From a virus (Duplodnaviria > Heunggongvirae > Uroviricota > Caudoviricetes): a stretch of 7,677 bases of DNA. Made by a program: the position numbers and the translations under genes. Shown here piece by piece: positions 1-7,677 of this stretch. The notes beneath the pieces were generated by a model, which was not told where the DNA came from, searched no databases, and was given only the letters and a program-made list of their open reading frames with translations. Position 1 is the first letter of the stretch; each line of letters opens with the position of its first letter. The stretch covers positions 1 through 7,677 of the IMG/VR virus record IMGVR_UViG_2681813234_000009; one strand, 5' to 3'.

Positions 1-426
1 TCAATGTACTGCCACAGCATTTCCTGCCGGGCCACCACGGTTCATCTGATTGAAACCGGCGATTGCCACTGCGACAAAATCATCAGCGTCTCTCACCAGT
101 CGTTCCCGCGTCTCCACCAACTCCCGAAAATAGACTGAACTGTGGCTGCGCATCCGGGCCACCAGCAGAGGTGGCATTGCTTTTTCGATCGCTGGTAACA
201 ACGCCTGAATTTTTTCAACCGCATCAGTGGTGTCTTTCTCCACCCAGCGGAAAATTTTCTGGGTATTACGAGCCAGGGCTTCTGGATGGCTGTCGTCGTA
301 CAGTTCCGGGGACGTCATTCCCAGTTCGAAATAAGCCCTGGTTATCTTGGCCGCCGGAACTTTTTCACCATCCGGACGCGCCCAGGCATTCATAGCCATG
401 CGGATGTGTTCATGCTTGATTTTCAT
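1..426 (-). CDS. CII-like phage regulatory protein (YdaT / CP76-type), 141 aa
   Basis: Complete ORF on the minus strand; stop codon is revcomp of nt 1-3 (tca). Lies directly downstream of the Cro-like gene with an ATGA start/stop overlap, the classic cro-cII arrangement. The N-terminus MKIKHEHI matches my recollection of YdaT-type proteins; family assignment is from memory, not a search. Confidence 0.55.
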   Translation of the reverse strand: MKIKHEHIRMAMNAWARPDGEKVPAAKITRAYFELGMTSPELYDDSHPEALARNTQKIFRWVEKDTTDAVEKIQALLPAIEKAMPPLLVARMRSHSSVYFRELVETRERLVRDADDFVAVAIAGFNQMNRGGPAGNAVAVH

Positions 427-650
427 GAATCATTCTTTCCTTCGTTCAAGGTGTTATCCTTCTTTTTGTAAAGTTCTGGGTTCAAAGATAATTTTCCCTT
501 GGAGTATGCGGCAGCTTCCGCGGCCCTCCCCTTGGGAACTATTTCACCAGGACGTTTGCGCCACATGTATATAGCTTCACGGGTTATCCCATAAAAATCG
601 GCAACTCTCTGAACAGAGCCAAAAAACTGGACAAGTTCATCAACTCGCAT
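423..650 (-). CDS. Cro-like HTH transcriptional regulator (YdaS/DicC-type), 75 aa
   Basis: Small basic protein with an HTH-like segment (VADFYGITREAIYMWRK). Strong SD AGGAGG 5 nt upstream of the ATG on the minus strand (plus-strand 651-660 ttcaccctcc). Divergent from the CI-like repressor across an operator-rich intergenic region. Confidence 0.7.
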   Translation of the reverse strand: MRVDELVQFFGSVQRVADFYGITREAIYMWRKRPGEIVPKGRAAEAAAYSKGKLSLNPELYKKKDNTLNEGKNDS

Positions 651-742
651 TTCACCCTCCTAAAACTAAGTATTTTTAGATTAAAGGATAATTTTTTTTA
701 GGTCAATGCAATCTAAAATAATTTATATTCAATTCACGGGAG
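651..742. promoter_or_regulatory. Divergent promoter/operator region between cro-like and cI-like genes (OR analog)
   Basis: 92 bp AT-rich intergenic region between divergent regulators. Contains a 20 bp imperfect palindrome CTAAAACTAAGTATTTTTAG (660-679, 16/20 symmetric) and a second inverted pair TTTTAG(695-700)...CTAAAA(713-718). Individual -10/-35 elements were not confidently resolved. Confidence 0.55.
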
Positions 743-1393
743 ATGATGATGGAAAGCCTTGGCATTAGGCTTAAGAGACTCAGAAAAGACAAGGGACTGA
801 CCCAAGTCGAACTGGGCAAGCTTTCTGGCGTAACAGGGGTAACTATAGGGTACTGGGAGAAAGACCTAAACGAACCCGGTAGCAAAGCTCTTAGTAAATT
901 AGCCCAAGCACTAGGAACTACTGAGTCCTATCTCCTATATGGAGTATCGTCTACTGAACCTACCCTTGTGCAGAACAATTCAGGCACCCAAATCCCCTAT
1001 CTTTCATGGGGGGAAGCAATTTCTTTCCTAATTTTAGAAGGAGAGAAAACTATGGGAAATGCCGACAGAATCACCACATTCTTTGACGTCAAGGAGGGGG
1101 ATTTTGCCGTTTCAATGCCTGATGACACTATGCACAACCCATCAGGGTCGCCAAGCATTCCGGTTGGTGCCACAGTGATCATGAGGCCTAGAGAAAAATA
1201 TAAAAATGGTAGTATCGTCGCTGTAATAGTCCCAGATCCGCTTACAAACGAACCATCTATGACTATAAAAAAATTAGTCATCGACGGAAAACTCGTGTAT
1301 TTAAGCCCCCTCAATCCTCGCTATCAATCGTCCTTACTGACACCTGAATGTAAAATTGTTGCTGTAGCAAAAGGTGTGCAGTTCAGCCTATAG
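743..1393 (+). CDS. CI-like prophage repressor, N-terminal HTH (XRE-type) plus C-terminal S24 (LexA/CI-like) peptidase domain, 216 aa
   Basis: N-terminus LKRLRKDKGLTQVELGKLSGVTGVTIGYWE is a typical HTH. C-terminal region aligns by eye to the lambda CI/LexA C-terminal domain (AVSMPDD Ser motif, NGSIVAV, TIKKL Lys motif, LSPLNP). Three consecutive ATGs at 743/746/749; GGGAG at 738-742 gives best spacing for the third ATG (749). Confidence 0.85.
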   Translation: MMMESLGIRLKRLRKDKGLTQVELGKLSGVTGVTIGYWEKDLNEPGSKALSKLAQALGTTESYLLYGVSSTEPTLVQNNSGTQIPYLSWGEAISFLILEGEKTMGNADRITTFFDVKEGDFAVSMPDDTMHNPSGSPSIPVGATVIMRPREKYKNGSIVAVIVPDPLTNEPSMTIKKLVIDGKLVYLSPLNPRYQSSLLTPECKIVAVAKGVQFSL

Positions 1394-1416
1394 CTTCCAC
1401 TTTGTTTTTCAATCAG

Positions 1417-1441
1417 AGGTCGGCTTTGTCGACCTTTTTTA
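1417..1441 (+). terminator. Rho-independent terminator after the cI-like gene
   Basis: Stem AGGTCG(1417-1422) / CGACCT(1430-1435) with a 7-nt loop, followed by TTTTTT (1436-1441), 24 nt after the cI-like stop. Confidence 0.6.
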
Positions 1442-1463
1442 AATATATCTAGATCACACTTGA

Positions 1464-1493
1464 CTATAAAACTAAATAGATTTAGTTTTATAG
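1464..1493. promoter_or_regulatory. 30 bp palindromic operator-like site (possible OL analog) downstream of cI-like gene
   Basis: ctataaaactaaat-ag-atttagttttatag: two perfect 14 bp inverted arms around a 2 bp centre. Shares the 9-mer TAAAACTAA with the OR region (661-669). Preceded by TTGACT (1460-1465). Confidence 0.4.
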
Positions 1494-1669
1494 TATACCA
1501 CCCCACCCCGCCCCACAGAACGCAGGGCAATACTTCGAGTTACCAGGCAGTGGTCAGGGGTTAAGTAGCCAGCCCGAGGCGTAAGAACATGACGGCAGGG
1601 TTCAACTTTAATAACTATGCAGCAGGTTTTTGTTCCGCTACCCCGGCGTTAAGGGGACATGAGGTCAAC

Positions 1670-1822
1670 ATGGATACTATCGATCTTGGCAACAACGAAT
1701 CTCTGGTATACGGCGTGTTTCCCAACCAGGACGGCACATTCACCGCGATGACGTATACCAAAAGCAAAACGTTTAAAACCGAATCTGGCGCGCGTCGCTG
1801 GTTAGCCAGAAATACTGACTGA
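1670..1822 (+). CDS. ydfA: YdfA-like small prophage protein (DUF1391-type), 50 aa
   Basis: Internal ATG at 1670 with GAGG 5 nt upstream. Product MDTIDLGNNESLVYGVFPNQDGTFTAMTYTKSKTFKTESGARRWLARNTD matches my recollection of Qin-prophage YdfA. The longer track ORF from 1589 has no obvious RBS. Confidence 0.6.
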   Translation: MDTIDLGNNESLVYGVFPNQDGTFTAMTYTKSKTFKTESGARRWLARNTD

Positions 1823-1833
1823 TGAGGTTGACT

Positions 1834-2208
1834 ATGGAATTTAAAGATTTACCAATGCAATTCCAGGAAATGGCAGCGAATATAGTTCGTTCCCAACTGG
1901 CGACTCTTGACCTGAGTACCGTAGAAAAAGAAACCATAGATAATATATCCGGTAACGTGCGCCGTGCCTTTATCGGGTTGTACGAAGAGAAGCAGCACTC
2001 TGATAAGCATGATTCCTCTGAAAAATACTTCCTGGAATTAATGGATATCATTAACAAGGGGTTTGGTTTGTTGATGGAAAAGAAAGGGATTCGAATAGAA
2101 CCCCTTAAAAACCATTTTACTGAGTGCAACATTAATTCCTGTGATTTAAAGCATCCCACTTCAGATGGGAAAGTTGAAGCCAACTATAAAATATCAATTA
2201 ATCATTAA
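1834..2208 (+). CDS. Hypothetical protein, 124 aa (start chosen at MEFKDL with GAGG RBS)
   Basis: ORF track 1822-2208; ATG at 1834 is preceded by GAGG (1823-1826). Protein is charged and soluble-looking with no family I recognise. The 3' half is distinctly AT-rich. Confidence 0.5.
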   Translation: MEFKDLPMQFQEMAANIVRSQLATLDLSTVEKETIDNISGNVRRAFIGLYEEKQHSDKHDSSEKYFLELMDIINKGFGLLMEKKGIRIEPLKNHFTECNINSCDLKHPTSDGKVEANYKISINH

Positions 2209-2265
2209 GTTCTCCACGGGTAAGGTGGAGAACATGCGCCGGACACGGATAAATCTCCGGCATGC
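2209..2265. terminator. Putative bidirectional terminator between convergent genes
   Basis: Perfect 9 bp stem GTTCTCCAC(2209-2217) / GTGGAGAAC(2225-2233) with a 7-nt loop, directly after the plus-strand stop. A second imperfect hairpin CATGCGCCGG...CCGGCATG (2233-2265) is followed by CTCTTT. Sits between the plus-strand ORF end (2208) and the minus-strand gene end (2287). Confidence 0.4.
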
Positions 2266-2286
2266 TCTTTAACATTCTGGATATTC

Positions 2287-2733
2287 CTAACTACAAAGAA
2301 ATCGCATCAATTTAGATTTTGTGGGCAGCTTCTCTTGTTGTTCGATGGAAACGCCTATTTTGATCTGTGTTTTTAAGATCGCAATATCTTTAAGTGATGA
2401 CCAAATATGAACATCCGTTTTTTCCAGAATTTTTAACTGCATTTTCAATTCAGAATCAGAATATTTTTCTGCATCATCAAAAAGCTGCAAATATTCTGCG
2501 GATTTTCTCATGGCGTTACCTGACTTTTGTCCGAATCCATAAATCGTTTGGACGGTTGCGATCACAACAATAAAAACGCCAGAAATTTCCGGAATGAATC
2601 CGCCAATGACAGATGAACCGAGGATAATACTCACCACTGAGAGAAGTTTATCGAGACGACCAGTTGCTACCGAAAATAGTTGCTCAAGAAAATAGCCATA
2701 TAAAATTCTGTCAAGAATATCATCCCGGTCCAT
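2287..2733 (-). CDS. Small membrane protein with two predicted transmembrane helices, 148 aa; function unknown (candidate exclusion/abortive-infection effector)
   Basis: Minus-strand ORF with AGGTGA 6 nt upstream of the ATG. Two hydrophobic helices (LLSVVSIILGSSVIGGFI and GVFIVVIATVQTIYGF) separated by a short PEIS turn, then a roughly 80-aa charged helical C-terminus. Strongly AT-rich versus flanking phage genes and opposite in orientation to the surrounding operon. Confidence 0.65.
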   Translation of the reverse strand: MDRDDILDRILYGYFLEQLFSVATGRLDKLLSVVSIILGSSVIGGFIPEISGVFIVVIATVQTIYGFGQKSGNAMRKSAEYLQLFDDAEKYSDSELKMQLKILEKTDVHIWSSLKDIAILKTQIKIGVSIEQQEKLPTKSKLMRFLCS

Positions 2734-3194
2734 ACATCATCACCTGCTTGTTTGGTTGTTGCTGTTCCCCCTCTCCTCCGAAGGAGCTGGAGATGGTTTT
2801 GGTCGAATGTTTTTCTCTGGTATGTGATCCCAGACTGTTTTATGTGTCGAATTGCCACCACCTGCTTGTGCTCTTTGCTCTGTCATATGATTTCCTTGGA
2901 TCGTTGGGGATATCCAGATTATACAGATTTCTTGTCGTTGGGGAATGACAGGAACCACCTCGCCTGACGTGGTTAAAAGCAGGCACACAACACGAAAGCG
3001 CACGGCGAAGTCATTTCTCCCTCTGTTGCGTGTCGCCGGTATCTTCGACCGTGCGCTTCCGGTTGTGGCACTCCGCGAAATGGCGCGGCGGTAAGTATGG
3101 CGGGGTTATCCTTACCCCCACTGGTAGCACCGGGTTGTCAGGTTGACCATACGCCTGAGTGACAACCCCGCCACAACATCTCCATGTTGAGGCT

Positions 3195-3249
3195 TGTGTG
3201 AGACCTTTGGCGGCATCAGTTTAATTGCTGGCTGATGTCCGCCCTTTTT
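3195..3249 (+). ncRNA. dicF: DicF-like small RNA (3' end defined by intrinsic terminator); 5' end approximate
   Basis: Terminator stem GGCGGCATCAG(3209-3219) / CTGATG(T)CCGCC(3232-3243), 11 bp with one bulge, then CTTTTT (3244-3249). Positioned immediately upstream of dicB as in Qin. Sequence and architecture resemble my recollection of E. coli DicF, but the 5' part differs. Confidence 0.5.
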
Positions 3250-3253
3250 AAAG

Positions 3254-3413
3254 TGAATTTTGTGATGCGGTGAATGCGGCTAAGCGCACGCGGAACAGTT
3301 AAAAAGCGATTAGTTCCCCCGTATCGGGGGTTTATGGGTTTCCCTGTATCCGGCGTTAATTGTTAACTGGTTAACGTCACCTGGAGGCACCAGGCACCGC
3401 ATCACAAAATTCA
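3254..3413. repeat. 19 bp perfect inverted repeat pair flanking about 120 nt of the dicB leader
   Basis: tgaattttgtgatgcggtg (3254-3272) is the exact reverse complement of caccgcatcacaaaattca (3395-3413). Enclosed region holds the hairpin CCCCCgtatcGGGGG and GTTAAC-tg-GTTAAC. The right arm ends 17 nt before the dicB ATG. Confidence 0.7.
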
Positions 3414-3430
3414 TTGTTGAGGATGCGATA

Positions 3431-3613
3431 ATGGAAACGTTATTACCAAACGTCAATACGTCTGAAGGTTGTTTTGAAATTGGTGTCAGAATCAGTAACC
3501 CTGTATTTACTGAAGATGCCATTAACAAGAGAAAACACGAACGGGAGCTATTAAATCAAATATGCATTGTTTCAATGCTGGCCCGTTTACGCCTGATGCA
3601 AAAAGGACGCTGA
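3431..3613 (+). CDS. dicB: Cell division inhibitor DicB, 60 aa
   Basis: METLLPNVNTSEGCFEIGVRISNPVFTEDAINKRKHERELLNQICIVSMLARLRLMQKGR closely matches my recollection of E. coli Qin DicB. GAGGA RBS upstream. Preceded by the DicF-like element, the same order as in Qin. Confidence 0.9.
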   Translation: METLLPNVNTSEGCFEIGVRISNPVFTEDAINKRKHERELLNQICIVSMLARLRLMQKGR

Positions 3614-3615
3614 CA

Positions 3616-3819
3616 ATGAATACAGTATTTGCACTCGTTCTGACAGTTTTTCTTAATACAGGCGAGCCAGTCGATCTTGTTATTGGTATACATGACTCAA
3701 TGAAAGAATGCATGGCTGCCGCAGCGGAACAGAAAATTCCCGGCAACTGTTATCCGGTTGATAAAGTTATTCACATGGACAATAACGAAATCCCGGCAGG
3801 ACTTAAAACAGCACCGTAA
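3616..3819 (+). CDS. ydfD: YdfD-like small membrane/lysis protein, 67 aa
   Basis: ATG at 3616, 2 nt after the dicB stop. MNTVFALVLTVFLNTGEPVDLVIGIHDSMKECMAAAAEQKIPGNCYPVDKVIH... has a hydrophobic N-terminal helix and matches my recollection of Qin YdfD. The longer track ORF from 3562 overlaps dicB and is unlikely. Confidence 0.8.
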   Translation: MNTVFALVLTVFLNTGEPVDLVIGIHDSMKECMAAAAEQKIPGNCYPVDKVIHMDNNEIPAGLKTAP

Positions 3820-3899
3820 TTAATATCCGGTTTCATTTTTATATGCCAGCAATGGCAGGGATTTGTTCACCCTTAAATCTGTAATGAGGTTAAAACAAA

Positions 3900-6371
3900 A
3901 TGAGTAAAGTCTTTATTTGCGCCGCCATTCCGGACGAACAGGCAATAAAGGAAGAAGGTGCAGTCGCTGTAGCCACTGCCATTGAAGCCGGCGACGAACG
4001 CCGCGCCCGAGCCAAATTTACCTGGCAATTCCTGGAGCAATATCCGGCTGCTCAGGACTGCGCTTATAAATTTCTTGTTTGCGAGGATAAACCCGGCATG
4101 CCCCGCCCTGCCATCGACTCCTGGGATACCGAATATATGCAGGAAAACTGCTGGGATGAGGAATCCGCTTCCTTTATTCCGGTCGAACCAGAATCCGATC
4201 CGATGAACGTCAATTTTGACAAGCTGTCCCCTGAAGTACAGAACGCGGTCCTGGTTAAGTTCGACACATGTGAAAACATCACCGTTGATATGGTTATTAG
4301 CGCACAGGAATTGTTGCAGGAAGACATGGCAACATTCGACGGACATATCGTTGAAGCGTTGATGAAAATGCCAGAAGTTAACGCCATGTATCCGGAGCTT
4401 AAGTTGCACGCCATTGGGTGGGTTAAGCATAAATGTATTCCTGGTGCTAAATGGCCCGAAATTCAGGCAGAGATGCGCATCTGGAAAAAACGTCGCGAAG
4501 GTGAACGCAAGGAAACCGGAAAATACACGTCTGTTGTTGATCTCGCCCGCGCCAGAGCCAATCAACAGTACACTGACAATTCAACAGGAAAAATCAGCCC
4601 GGTCATTGCTGCCACTCATCGCGAATACAAGCAGACATGGAAAACACTGGATGACGAACTGGCCTACGCTCTCTGGCCTGGTGATGTGGATGCCGGAAAC
4701 ATTGACGGCAGCATCCATCGCTGGGCAAAAAATGAAGTTATCGACAACGACCGCGAAGACTGGAAGCGTATCTCGGCATCAATGCGCAAACAGCCTGATG
4801 CCCTTCGCTACGACCGACAGACTATTTTTGGCCTTGTCCGTGAACGTCCGATCGACATTCACAAAGACCCTGTGGCACTGAACAAATACATTACTGAATA
4901 CCTGACTACAAAGGGCGTGTTTGAAGATGAAGGAACAAATCAGAGCGCAACTGATACTCTCTCGTCGCCAGTACCAGAAACTGATGCAGTGGAAACGGCA
5001 ATTCCGGACAACGAAAAAACCGAATGCAAAGTTGAAGTCGAACCATCTGTAGAGCGTGAGGGGCCGTTCTACTTCCTCTTCACAGATAAGGATGGCGAAA
5101 AATATGGTCGCGCAAACAAACTTTCTGGTCTGAATAAGGCGCTGACTGCAGGGGCTACTGAAATCACGAAAGAAGAATATTTTGCCCGTAAAAACGGTAC
5201 ATACTCAGGTTCACAACAAAATACTGGTGCATCTGACACGACCGCACAACCAGAGCCGGTAAAAGTTACCGCTGACGAAGTAAACAAAATTATGCAGGCA
5301 GCCAATATCAGCCAGCCTGACGCCGATAAGTTGCTTGCTGTATCACGTGGTGAATTTGTTGCAGGGATTAGCGACCCGAATGATCCGAAATGGGTGAAGG
5401 GGATTGAAACCCGCGATTCAGTGAATCAGAACCAGCAAGAAACGGAACAGAACGACCAGAAAGCGGAACAAAACAGCCCAAATGCGTTACAAAACGAGCC
5501 AGAAACGAAACAACCTGAGCCAGTAGCGCAACAGGAAGCGGAAAAAGTCTGCACCGCCTGCGGTCAGACCGGCGGCGGCAACTGCCCTGATTGTGGTGCG
5601 GTGATGGGCGACGCAACATACCAAGAAACATTCGATGACAAGAACCAGGTTGAAGTTCAGGAAGACGATTCGGAGAAAATGGAAGGCGCTGAACATCCAC
5701 ACAAAGAGAATGCTGGCAGCGCTCAGGATCACGCCAGCGATAGTGAAACTGGCGAGACGGCAGATCCCTTAATTACGGTGAACGGTCATCACGTTATCAC
5801 ATCCACCAGCAGGACGTGTGACCATCTAATGATCGACCTTGAAACCATGGGAAAAAATCCTGATGCCCCGATTATCTCAATAGGTGCAATATTTTTCGAT
5901 CCGCAAACCGGAGATATGGGACCGGAATTTAGTAAGACTATCGATCTGGAAACTGCTGGCGGAGTCATTGATCGGGACACCATTAAATGGTGGCTTAAGC
6001 AATCACGCGAAGCGCAATCTGCCATTATGACCGATGAAATCCCGTTAGATGATGCACTGTTACAATTGCGGGAATTTATCGACGAAAACTCCGGTGAATT
6101 TTTTGTTCAGGTCTGGGGAAATGGAGCCAACTTCGACAACACGATTTTGCGCCGTTCATACGAACGGCAGGGGATCCCCTGCCCGTGGCGTTACTACAAC
6201 GATCGCGATGTACGCACAATCGTTGAGCTGGGGAAAGCCATAGACTTCGATGCCAGAACGGCTATTCCATTCGAAGGTGAGCGCCATAATGCACTTGATG
6301 ACGCCCGTTACCAGGCAAAATACGTTTCAGCAATCTGGCAAAAACTGATCCCGAATCCGGTTGATTTTTAA
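3900..6371 (+). CDS. ydfE: Large YdfE-like prophage protein, 823 aa: N-terminal YdfE-homologous region, low-complexity Q/E/N-rich linker, CxxC-x7-CxxC motif, C-terminal DEDDh-type 3'-5' exonuclease domain
   Basis: Uninterrupted 2.47 kb ORF with GAGG upstream. N-terminus MSKVFICAAIPDEQAIKEEGAVAVA... matches my recollection of K-12 YdfE. C-terminus carries DEDDh motifs: D646-x-E648 (MIDLETMG), N-FD (GNGANFDNT) and H796-x4-D801 (HNALDDARY). Cys551/554/562/565 form a CxxC-x7-CxxC motif. Confidence 0.85.
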   Translation: MSKVFICAAIPDEQAIKEEGAVAVATAIEAGDERRARAKFTWQFLEQYPAAQDCAYKFLVCEDKPGMPRPAIDSWDTEYMQENCWDEESASFIPVEPESDPMNVNFDKLSPEVQNAVLVKFDTCENITVDMVISAQELLQEDMATFDGHIVEALMKMPEVNAMYPELKLHAIGWVKHKCIPGAKWPEIQAEMRIWKKRREGERKETGKYTSVVDLARARANQQYTDNSTGKISPVIAATHREYKQTWKTLDDELAYALWPGDVDAGNIDGSIHRWAKNEVIDNDREDWKRISASMRKQPDALRYDRQTIFGLVRERPIDIHKDPVALNKYITEYLTTKGVFEDEGTNQSATDTLSSPVPETDAVETAIPDNEKTECKVEVEPSVEREGPFYFLFTDKDGEKYGRANKLSGLNKALTAGATEITKEEYFARKNGTYSGSQQNTGASDTTAQPEPVKVTADEVNKIMQAANISQPDADKLLAVSRGEFVAGISDPNDPKWVKGIETRDSVNQNQQETEQNDQKAEQNSPNALQNEPETKQPEPVAQQEAEKVCTACGQTGGGNCPDCGAVMGDATYQETFDDKNQVEVQEDDSEKMEGAEHPHKENAGSAQDHASDSETGETADPLITVNGHHVITSTSRTCDHLMIDLETMGKNPDAPIISIGAIFFDPQTGDMGPEFSKTIDLETAGGVIDRDTIKWWLKQSREAQSAIMTDEIPLDDALLQLREFIDENSGEFFVQVWGNGANFDNTILRRSYERQGIPCPWRYYNDRDVRTIVELGKAIDFDARTAIPFEGERHNALDDARYQAKYVSAIWQKLIPNPVDF

Positions 6372-6437
6372 TGTTCAACCCTGATCGCCGTCCCCGAATT
6401 ATATTGGCGGCGGTCATGCTGTAAGGCACGTGACCAC

Positions 6438-6689
6438 ATGTACGAATTAACTCTATCGCCAGCAGAGATTCAAGAGATCACGAAATACGAGCGATACACA
6501 AAACAGCAACACCAGTTAAGGCTGCACGGTATCCCATTTGTAATCGGTCCTAAAAACGAACCAATAGTTCTTCGCAGGGATATTCCACACGGACTGACTA
6601 CGATGCCAAAAGCACCTGAACTGGTTTCCGCTGAACCCGATTTTGAGGCGCTGAACAATGGGAAGACCAAGAAAAAACAAAAAAGATAA
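6438..6689 (+). CDS. xis: Putative excisionase (Xis-like), 83 aa
   Basis: Small ORF immediately upstream of int, overlapping it by 32 nt as lambda xis overlaps int. N-terminus MYELTL resembles lambda Xis MYLTL; basic C-terminal tail NNGKTKKKQKR resembles the lambda Xis tail. Weak RBS. Confidence 0.55.
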   Translation: MYELTLSPAEIQEITKYERYTKQQHQLRLHGIPFVIGPKNEPIVLRRDIPHGLTTMPKAPELVSAEPDFEALNNGKTKKKQKR

Positions 6690-7677
6690 TGCACTACCAC
6701 CGCGTGTTAGATCGAATGGTTACAGTTACGTATGGAAACCCGAAGGAAGCACAAGAACTATAGGGCTCGGAAGAGTGCGGGAAACCAGCGTAGCTAAAGT
6801 CTGGCAAAATTATGAGCTGGAAAAAGCAAAACTCCACAACATAATGACAGTAGCTAAATTATGGCACATGTTTATGGACTCCCCTGCATTTACAGAACTG
6901 GCCCCCCGAACCCAAAAAGATTATCGGCAACATCAAAGGGCATTGTTGGCAGTATTCGGAAAAGTGCTTGCTGATAATGTAAAAATTGAACAGGTAAGAA
7001 TTTTCATGGATAAGCGAGGACTTGAGAGCAAGACCCAGGCAAACCATGAACTGGCAAGTCTGAGCCGTGTATACGGATGGGGATATGAGCGTGGGTATGT
7101 GAAAAATAATCCATGCAAAGGAGTCAGAAAATTCACACTTAAAGCCCGTACTGTTTACATCACCGATGAACAGTATGCTGCAATATATGCGGAAGCAATT
7201 CCACAGTTACGTATTGCAATGGAGATATCCTATCTTTGTGCGGCAAGGCTCGGTGATGTACTCGAGCTGAAATGGCAGGATATTATGGAGAAAGGGATTT
7301 ACATTGAGCAAAACAAGACCGGCACTAAACAAATCAAGGAATGGTCTCCGCGATTACGTACGGCGATCCAGTTAGCCCGAAATGTATCTTCCGGCACATG
7401 CGAGTATGTGATCAACACAACCAAAGGCGGGAAGGTAATAGCCAAGACGCTGAACAACTGGTGGAATCAGGCTAAACGTGCAGCCGAGCAAAAAGCCGGC
7501 GTTCCGTTTGGGTGCAACTTCCATGACATAAAAGCCAAAGGGATTTCAGATTACGAAGGCAGCAGTCGCGACAAACAAATTTTCAGTGGACACAAAACAG
7601 AAAATCAGGTGTTGATTTACGATCGTAAAACCAAAATAACACCAACACTGGATTTGCCGCTTGTGGTCAGTAAGTAG
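6658..7677 (+). CDS. int: Lambda-family tyrosine integrase, 339 aa, apparently intact
   Basis: N-terminus MGRPRKNKKDNALPPRVRSNGYSYVWKPEGSTRTIGLGR parallels the lambda Int arm-binding N-terminus as I recall it (MGRRRSHERRDLPPNLYIRNNGYYCYRDPRTGKEFGLGRD). Catalytic-region motifs AARLGD (Arg), FHDIKAKG, SGHKTENQVLIYD (His...Tyr). Stop TAG at 7675-7677 is the last triplet of the window. Confidence 0.9.
   Translation: MGRPRKNKKDNALPPRVRSNGYSYVWKPEGSTRTIGLGRVRETSVAKVWQNYELEKAKLHNIMTVAKLWHMFMDSPAFTELAPRTQKDYRQHQRALLAVFGKVLADNVKIEQVRIFMDKRGLESKTQANHELASLSRVYGWGYERGYVKNNPCKGVRKFTLKARTVYITDEQYAAIYAEAIPQLRIAMEISYLCAARLGDVLELKWQDIMEKGIYIEQNKTGTKQIKEWSPRLRTAIQLARNVSSGTCEYVINTTKGGKVIAKTLNNWWNQAKRAAEQKAGVPFGCNFHDIKAKGISDYEGSSRDKQIFSGHKTENQVLIYDRKTKITPTLDLPLVVSK

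Follow-up and report, generated by a model that had tools for sequence, protein, structure and literature searches.

A reverse-oriented two-gene cassette in the sieB socket of a Rac/Qin-like lambdoid prophage: a putative membrane exclusion module

The 7,677-nucleotide (nt) stretch of DNA analysed here (the window; positions 1 to 7,677 of the IMG/VR record IMGVR_UViG_2681813234_000009, Caudoviricetes) comes from a Rac/Qin-like lambdoid prophage, of which it covers the early-left arm, ending at the integrase. Within it, a discrete, AT-rich and reverse-oriented moron fills the sieB socket of the prophage (2263-2986). This cassette carries a sieB-type promoter with a structured leader, a proline-rich micro-open reading frame (micro-ORF) of 48 amino acids (aa) and the gene of a 148-aa membrane protein with two transmembrane (TM) helices. 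It is an undescribed variant of the prophage exclusion moron, in which the micro-ORF partner and the widespread, structured and unannotated socket stand out. Judging from position, regulation and fold, the cassette may serve in defence. We consider it somewhat probable, by analogy with known systems, that it is a membrane exclusion or abortive-infection module expressed in the lysogen, possibly silenced by antisense transcription during the lytic phase of its own phage.

The 148-aa ORF (2287-2733, minus strand) is a real and conserved gene preceded by a Shine-Dalgarno (SD) sequence, AGGTGA, and its product (WP_000373332.1, annotated as 'hypothetical') is the putative effector of the cassette. 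Hydrophobic segments were found at residues 30-46 and 52-68 with the five-residue turn IPEIS between them, and the same peaks recur in the family-wide hydropathy profile. Both cytoplasmic flanks of the TM hairpin are basic and the last 80 residues are charged and helical; the topology predicted from the sequence is an N-in/C-in two-TM hairpin. The AlphaFold2 model, obtained with a 110-sequence alignment, is entirely helical (predicted local distance difference test score of 86.6), with helices at residues 3-44, 48-65, 67-86, 93-105, 113-126 and 138-147. An earlier note on this DNA, made from the letters alone, had described a gene on the strand opposite to cI, ydfA and dicB, a protein with a cytoplasmic N-terminal segment, a two-helix membrane hairpin and a charged helical tail, and no assignable family. 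The orientation was confirmed, and the topology was recovered by both hydropathy and the AlphaFold2 model.

The family assignment led to the same answer as in that note. No match to the 148-aa protein was obtained in Pfam or NCBIfam, and the sole family that it matches is phrog_6315, whose function is unassigned. A word-indexed search returned 23 close relatives, while HMMER, run exhaustively with a profile of 7 sequences, returned 144 cluster representatives, essentially all of them stand-alone proteins of ~145-180 aa. The profile search of a set of 5.8 billion proteins found only 'hypothetical protein' entries, none with a Pfam domain, and comparison with the PDB yielded nothing informative. 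The protein was assigned to no described family. Residues Y12, E17, R26, D28, Y81, L84, D107 and A118, most of them cytoplasmic, are conserved family-wide, together with two glycines of the TM hairpin, G39 and G52.

Comparison with related prophages, which had been proposed as a check, confirmed that the cassette is a discrete indel. Phage Tritos is collinear with the window to 1812, shares the hairpins at 2208-2262 and rejoins at 2975. Since the blastn alignment with Tritos breaks at 2262 and restarts at 2975, the segment 2263-2974, with its genes on the minus strand, is an indel between the two; against phage mEp460, the break on the upper side falls at 2950 (blastn). The stretch 1990-2760, which the earlier note had singled out as an AT-rich insert, does have the lowest GC content of all 6907 windows of 771 nt (rank 1; 0.379 against a mean of 0.459 and a standard deviation of 0.031), and the flanks reach 0.47-0.53 (1501-1900) and 0.53-0.59 (2901-3300). 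As one insert, it did not survive the comparison. The low-GC stretch consists of two unrelated modules, namely a 128-aa plus-strand gene (GC 0.380) and the reverse cassette, and the true insert edges are those given by blastn. The GC content of the 148-aa gene is 0.374 and that of its third codon positions 0.338, against 0.46 for the window. The two modules are regarded as independent because the 128-aa and the 148-aa genes are gained and lost separately in relatives and because hairpins of 50% GC lie between them. For instance, strain SCU-104 has the 148-aa cassette and lacks 1830-2207 (blastn).

The converging 128-aa and 148-aa genes are separated by a two-hairpin cluster (2209-2266, both strands), which is predicted to act as a bidirectional terminator-like insulator. 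It comprises a perfect 9-bp stem at 2209-2233 and a second stem at ~2234-2266, with fold z-scores of -2.9 (plus strand) and -3.6 (minus strand). The cluster is kept in the cassette-free Tritos and also in a Salmonella locus (L006). Since Tritos has the hairpins without the cassette, they are part of the phage backbone; the hairpin insulation formerly ascribed to the 3' end of the 148-aa gene therefore stands as to the cluster itself and falls as to its belonging to the insert. A moron is a promoter-gene-terminator unit within a phage operon, and what was found here is an indel with a promoter recognised by homology, downstream hairpins and a deviant GC content. In the same Salmonella prophage, which has a Cox/P2-type integrase region, the counterpart of window 3043-3177 lies on the opposite side of the cassette (L006 5535-5638), and this segment order suggests a rearrangement around the cassette.

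The cassette is rare. It was found in 72 of 5426 E. coli genomes, chromosomal every time, and the whole 1500-3500 arrangement occurs in just 14 of these complete genomes, while most related phages are without the cassette. A literature search on SLATT with SieB and on lambdoid hotspots found no description of it.

The 148-aa gene is not the lone gene of the insert for which it had been taken. It comes second in a unit of two genes, behind the conserved micro-ORF (2740-2886, minus strand, ribosome-binding site AAGGAA), which encodes the 48-aa proline-rich peptide MTEQRAQAGGGNSTHKTVWDHIPEKNIRPKPSPAPSEERGNSNNQTSR. The stop codon of the micro-ORF lies 6 nt 5' of the ATG of the 148-aa gene, beside the SD sequence of the latter. 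A comparable small ORF precedes 30 of the 36 distinct homologues in the loci that were fetched (numbered with L throughout), with its stop 6-19 nt before the large ATG. The encoded peptides are all hydrophilic and share a D-H-[ILM]-P core, followed by either RPxPxPK or a polyproline run; none of them has a match in PHROG. Their hosts include Salmonella, Symbiopectobacterium, Sodalis and Xenorhabdus (decaying copies), Citrobacter and Vibrio, in addition to many IMG/VR prophage contigs and two phage isolates, one of Providencia and one of Elizabethkingia. Several source records annotate the micro-ORF as a gene, and in a diverged E. coli variant its frame is preserved across a 12-nt indel. In the decaying cassettes, it is the micro-ORF that is frameshifted, at a C-run, in the Sodalis metagenome-assembled genome (L008), while in Xenorhabdus khoisanae (L012) the frameshift is in the large gene and the start codon of the micro-ORF is missing.

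Four loci (L021, L024, L026 and L049) have lost ~118 nt of the micro-ORF (~2742-2859), including its conserved part, by recombination between two ACAAGCAGGTG repeats. The large ORF remains full-length in three of the four, the L049 copy being cut to 119 aa. Because the deletion variants retain the large ORF, the micro-protein is not indispensable. A mechanism in which ribosome pausing on the micro-ORF unmasks a sequestered SD sequence of the effector was also considered. It was rejected, as minimum-free-energy and partition-function folds of 10 homologous mRNAs revealed no consistent SD sequestration.

The ~100 nt 5' of the micro-ORF are conserved as nucleotides even where the large proteins are only ~30% identical. 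This leader aligns column for column with the 'sieB promoter' (29690-29720) and the 'sieB RNA start site' (29727) annotated in P22 (BK000583), and 98 nt upstream match these P22 features as well as the DNA 5' of lambda sieB. From the P22 alignment, a promoter is predicted in the region 2887-2923 of the minus strand with its -10 hexamer, TATAAT, at 2923-2918. The predicted transcript starts near 2911 with a 25-nt 5' untranslated region (UTR), which opens with the second of two TCCCCAAC repeats (2913-2903) and extends to 2887. The -10-like hexamer is kept across distant loci. A sigma-32 or sigma-E reading of the CCCCAA repeats was dismissed, since spacing and hexamers fit poorly by eye and the mapped promoter of P22 lines up with a -10 of the sigma-70 type.

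Further upstream, the leader is structured. On the gene strand, the elements GCCTG, AACCAC, CAGGC and GTGGTT follow each other in this order and make up two interleaved helices, P1 (GCCTG/CAGGC) and P2 (AACCAC/GTGGTT), at 2953-2984 (given without a strand), which would form a pseudoknot-like fold or alternative hairpins. Next comes P3 with the loop ATTCCCCAAC, then the -10-like hexamer and the second TCCCCAAC copy, 33 nt after the first. The P3 hairpin, assigned to the plus strand (2929-2954), lies over the -35 region, includes the first TCCCCAAC repeat and has a GGGG loop on that strand. In an alignment of 23 sequences, P1-P3 were 75% paired overall with a covariation of 0.22 against 0.12 for shuffled alignments; none of 500 shuffles was as high, and slid controls gave at most 0.12. 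P1 is 99% paired and shows compensatory changes at two positions (GTCTG/CAGAC and GCCTT/AAGGC), and visual inspection of a Rac-like phage outside that alignment added a third variant, GCCCG/CGGGC. P2 occurs as ACCCTC/GAGGGT, ACTAC/GTAG and CCGC/GCGG, and in the P3 stem the pairing is kept while the sequence varies. No Rfam family was matched by the leader.

The helices P1-P3 lie upstream of the mapped P22 start and are therefore outside a sieB-type mRNA. On the gene strand, P3 shows 36 A.C or C.A oppositions against 7 G.U, and such an excess is expected when the pairs belong to the other strand. On the plus strand, P3 is a 10-11-bp stem with the GGGG loop and is the more stable form in 19 of 26 sequences (mean -9.9 vs -6.9 kcal/mol; paired Wilcoxon p ~0.0015, which overstates independence as the sequences are related). 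Given both the P22 start and these pairing statistics, a 5' UTR folded on the gene strand was rejected for P1-P3. In P22, the 105-nt antisense RNA sas switches sieB translation and underlies self-immunity (PMC12197685, PMC7067206). By analogy, the conserved plus-strand structure may be part of a sas-like RNA; sas is annotated in no phage record.

The same leader can be read as a feature of the DNA, promoter-upstream or recombinational, rather than of RNA, in which case the cassette would be constitutive and free of antisense control. The mapped P22 start, which leaves the helices outside the sieB mRNA, agrees with that reading, and so do the coincidence of the element with one indel edge and the absence, on inspection by eye, of an obvious promoter from which a short antisense RNA could be made on the plus strand. 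However, compensatory changes in three helices, two of them interleaved, are unusual for protein-binding DNA, and there is a strand asymmetry of G.U versus A.C. Moreover, the early-left transcript must cross the region whenever the early-left promoter is active. A leader acting at the DNA level is accordingly a serious possibility, though in our view a doubtful one.

The leader is far more widespread than the cassette. Its first 45 nt were found in 3046 of the 5426 E. coli genomes (56%), at 5032 places and never under an annotated feature. In a lambda lysogen, it lies between ral and sieB (L075 2500-2600), and in the Rac-like phage vB_EcoS-666R9 sieB stands behind the same leader in the slot and orientation of the cassette. 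The gene that follows it is one of 66 aa in BL21(DE3) and in phage mEp460 and one of 171 aa in EDL933. The loci with the leader include L078 900-1010 (P22), L076, L077 and L005, the window copy being at 2895-2990. The earlier note had placed the insert at a position where lambdoid phages carry rexAB/sieB-type morons. The leader homology with P22 and lambda and the Rac-like phage narrow this down to the sieB slot, and on this sequence evidence the cassette is plugged into the sieB socket itself, which makes the placement argument stronger than it had been put.

Three prophages with the cassette have a second P1/P2/P3 leader a few hundred bases away (L066 4765-5039, L057 4665-4990 and L010 7024-7411), followed by small unannotated genes (66, 83 and 92 aa); sockets can occur in tandem. 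An insertion of the cassette inside a truncated sieB was also considered, for window 3003-2975 resembles the annotated 5' end of a Rac-type sieB. In vB_EcoS-666R9 (ON470614.1, L003 1955-2566), the annotated SieB start is apparently ~41 codons too far upstream, as the annotated N-terminal part takes in the leader and a good ribosome-binding site with an ATG (locus 2443), and Pfam SieB is matched only from residue 62 onwards. With the real SieB ATG being downstream, the resemblance at 3003-2975 is that of the conserved leader flank, and the truncated sieB was rejected.

The cassette shares with sieB of P22, lambda and Rac (PF14163; accompanied by Esc and sas) the socket and the orientation, reversed inside the early-left operon, and a homologous promoter and leader, to which the promoter and RNA start annotated in P22 belong. 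Both products are small inner-membrane proteins of lambdoid prophages with a cytoplasmic helical tail. There is no sequence link between the two proteins: PF14163 gave no match to the 148-aa protein at E<=1 and is absent among the 25 families listed for 110 family members at E<=0.1, and the hhalign probability was 0.7%, while SieB of P22, lambda and the Rac-like phage, taken as controls, scored 1e-29 to 1e-31. The cassette is a non-homologous replacement of sieB. It differs from sieB also in having a proline-rich micro-ORF and no conserved Esc-type internal start. An Esc-like start was rejected: behind the TM hairpin there is a single Met, M75, and this residue is not kept across the close homologues.

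In the mechanism that we propose, the sieB-type promoter would be active in the lysogen and give rise to a bicistronic minus-strand mRNA, encoding the 48-aa micro-protein and then, 6 nt on, the 148-aa inner-membrane protein with cytoplasmic helical parts at both ends of its hairpin. The latter would be the effector. By analogy with SieB/RexB and with SLATT-type two-TM proteins, it may permeabilise or depolarise the membrane once a superinfecting phage is sensed and thereby abort the infection; alternatively, it may keep the phage from entering. For the micro-ORF, coupling or tuning of effector translation is proposed, or else a part as a small regulatory partner. When the own phage enters the lytic phase, early-left transcription of the plus strand would run antisense through the cassette and the leader hairpins and switch the effector off, in analogy to P22 sas.

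If entry were blocked, the protein would act at the envelope on DNA entry or on the receptor, like SieA, Imm or Sp, and would not kill the cell. An inner-membrane protein behind a lysogenic-type promoter in a prophage would suit such superinfection exclusion, and position and regulation cannot tell it from abortive infection. Nevertheless, the periplasmic loop has only ~5 residues and the conserved residues lie nearly all in the cytoplasm (E17, R26, D28, Y81, D107 and A118), and for these two reasons an effector that senses in the cytoplasm fits better than an entry blocker. SieB, which shares the slot, is described in the literature as blocking the lytic development of the superinfecting phage and not its entry. 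We regard exclusion at entry as unlikely.

RexB of lambda (RexAB) is another prophage-expressed membrane protein encoded near the repressor and is thought to depolarise the cell upon superinfection. The 148-aa protein resembles it in being a membrane protein encoded near the repressor of a prophage. RexB, however, has four TM helices and needs RexA, and rexAB is in the cI operon while the cassette is in the sieB slot; no similarity of the 148-aa protein to RexB was detected with Pfam or PADLOC.

The order of an upstream frame, a membrane protein and a candidate antisense control of the leader is also that of hok/mok/sok. Along these lines, the cassette would be an addiction or stress toxin, i.e. 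a translationally coupled membrane toxin held in check by antisense RNA, which stabilises the prophage and excludes no phages. The stop of the upstream ORF 6-19 nt before the effector start, the structure that the leader conserves on its antisense strand and the membrane nature of the effector all speak for it. Against this, the effector with its 148 aa is three times larger and far beyond the size of type I toxins (under ~60 aa). The upstream ORF ends 6 nt before it without overlap, so that neither the small toxin nor the overlapping coupling ORF of a type I toxin-antitoxin system was found, and the antisense RNA is only a candidate. Moreover, the sequence of the micro-ORF peptide is conserved and not merely its frame, variants deleted for most of the micro-ORF persist, and the leader is common to sieB, a known exclusion gene. 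The toxin reading appears rather improbable to us.

SLATT proteins are predicted pore-forming defence effectors (PMC9226505), and a SLATT-type fold had been guessed for the 148-aa protein from the outset. Hydropathy and the AlphaFold2 model show the SLATT-type two-TM hairpin with cytoplasmic helices on either side. In the profile searches against Pfam and PADLOC, which had likewise been proposed, no Pfam match was obtained and the PADLOC match of the 148-aa protein, to RTasSLATT, was weak (E 0.02, residues 31-144). Over the 110 family members, the only PADLOC models matched by more than one of them were those of the 2TM effector of the cyclic-oligonucleotide-based antiphage signalling system (CBASS) and of SLATT associated with reverse transcriptase (RT), with 9 members for PDLC00712, 4 for PDLC03794, 3 for PDLC03819 and 2 for another model (best E 2.7e-4). 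Foldseek against the BFVD viral models gave a SLATT annotation in 8 of the 12 top matches, at a probability of 0.93-1.0, E values of 8e-3 to 0.1, a TMq of 0.5-0.66 and a high root-mean-square deviation. The SLATT guess thus found consistent, weak matches in PADLOC and Foldseek and none to a Pfam SLATT model for the 148-aa protein, which scores under the curated Pfam thresholds. Further differences are the partner, a peptide of 22-53 aa instead of an adjoining nucleotide cyclase, SLOG, RT or other sensor, and the setting in a prophage immunity/early region instead of a defence island. On the models, the protein may be called SLATT-like in shape and a candidate, rather than an established, member.

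Several points weigh against an exclusion or abortive-infection role. No curated defence model is matched significantly, the one Pfam match being that of SLATT_4 to 1 of the 110 members at E 0.041, and two-TM helical proteins draw spurious fold and profile matches. No sensor typical of SLATT systems (SMODS, SLOG, UG/Abi RT or RADAR) adjoins the gene in the window or in the loci of E. coli, Salmonella, Citrobacter, Vibrio, Providencia and Elizabethkingia, and the 148-aa gene is without a partner sensor enzyme, unlike most SLATT systems. The micro-protein is conserved yet dispensable for viability. Finally, the antisense step is drawn by analogy. Still, a lysogen-expressed membrane module directed against superinfecting phages remains the reading that we hold somewhat probable. 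A bolder extension, which is improbable by our own estimate, would make the sieB-type leader a general antisense-gated socket, with a sas-like RNA or RNA domain silencing any exclusion payload in the lytic phase. The proline-rich micro-ORF would then act as a sensor of the translation state, through EF-P-dependent or ribosome pausing, and set the level of a SLATT-like pore during infection, i.e. a sensor-less membrane defence triggered through translation.

Distant homologues with 20-30% identity were found in Citrobacter, Vibrio, Providencia and Elizabethkingia. Those of Citrobacter (~28% identity) are in lambdoid prophages, adjoining an S24 repressor and opposite to the early genes, while those of Vibrio (~20% identity) are in P2-like prophages, ~1.1 kb from a CI-type repressor with GmrSD/HEPN or SNIPE genes on its flanks, and again opposite to the flanking phage genes. 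The copy of the Providencia phage is in the early-left region, ~2 kb from cI and opposite to the flanking phage genes. In the Elizabethkingia phage EKP1 (L083, OM284015.1), the two-gene cassette is reversed between a Q-type antiterminator and the holin/lysis genes. Among the isolated phages of INPHARED, only the Providencia and Elizabethkingia phages have a homologue. The recorded host of EKP1 is a member of the Bacteroidota, yet its Q-antiterminator/holin/lysozyme/Rz region looks lambdoid; either the cassette family has an unusual host range or the host assignment is questionable.

The neighbourhood of lysis genes in EKP1 and the two-TM N-in/C-in shape with a charged C-terminus, which resembles class II holins, would be in line with a holin- or antiholin-like protein, or another accessory membrane protein of use to the lytic cycle of its own phage or, as lysogenic conversion, to host physiology, and uninvolved in conflicts between phages. 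No holin family was matched in Pfam by the 148-aa protein or the 110 members, however, and the cassette opposes every lytic operon that hosts it: the 148-aa gene faces the flanking operon in the window, and the EKP1 copy faces the lysis genes. It also has its own sieB-type promoter, and it is missing from most related phages, which lyse normally. An accessory or holin-like function is the alternative to which we give the least credence.

The remainder of the window is that of a prophage immunity and early-left region, and DNA 99.9% identical to it is integrated beside yccA in E. coli strain 0-4. A cro-like gene (423-650, minus strand) is followed on the plus strand by a LexA-type cI (743-1393), DUF1391/ydfA (ending at 1822) and the 128-aa hypothetical gene (1822-2208, phrog_6937). 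Residues 1-60 of the product of the latter match several other PHROGs. The gene is missing from SCU-104, and ydfB/ydfC-type genes take its place in Tritos; within the early-left operon, it forms a module of its own that can be exchanged. Beyond the cassette, a DicF-like small RNA (3195-3244, plus strand) reaches 45.4 bits (E 2.5e-8) against a gathering score of 48, and it escapes the default Rfam scan because it is just under this threshold. Downstream of it, a partial STnc100-like match was noticed at 3256-3408 on the plus strand (35.8 vs 47 bits). They are followed, on the same strand, by dicB (3431-3613), a DUF1482 gene, a large exonuclease (3900-6371), an excisionase-like gene and then the integrase.

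If the cassette excludes phages, it would represent a compact defence module, composed of a micro-protein and a stand-alone SLATT-like effector, that is unrecognised by Pfam, NCBIfam, PADLOC 2023 and PHROGs. The sieB position of lambdoid prophages is itself a reusable socket: over half of the E. coli genomes have its structured leader, and the payloads behind it are as different as 66-aa, 83-aa, 92-aa and 171-aa genes, sieB and the present two-gene cassette. Such a socket may offer a handle for mining prophage exclusion genes and for revisiting how far control of the P22 sas type generalises.

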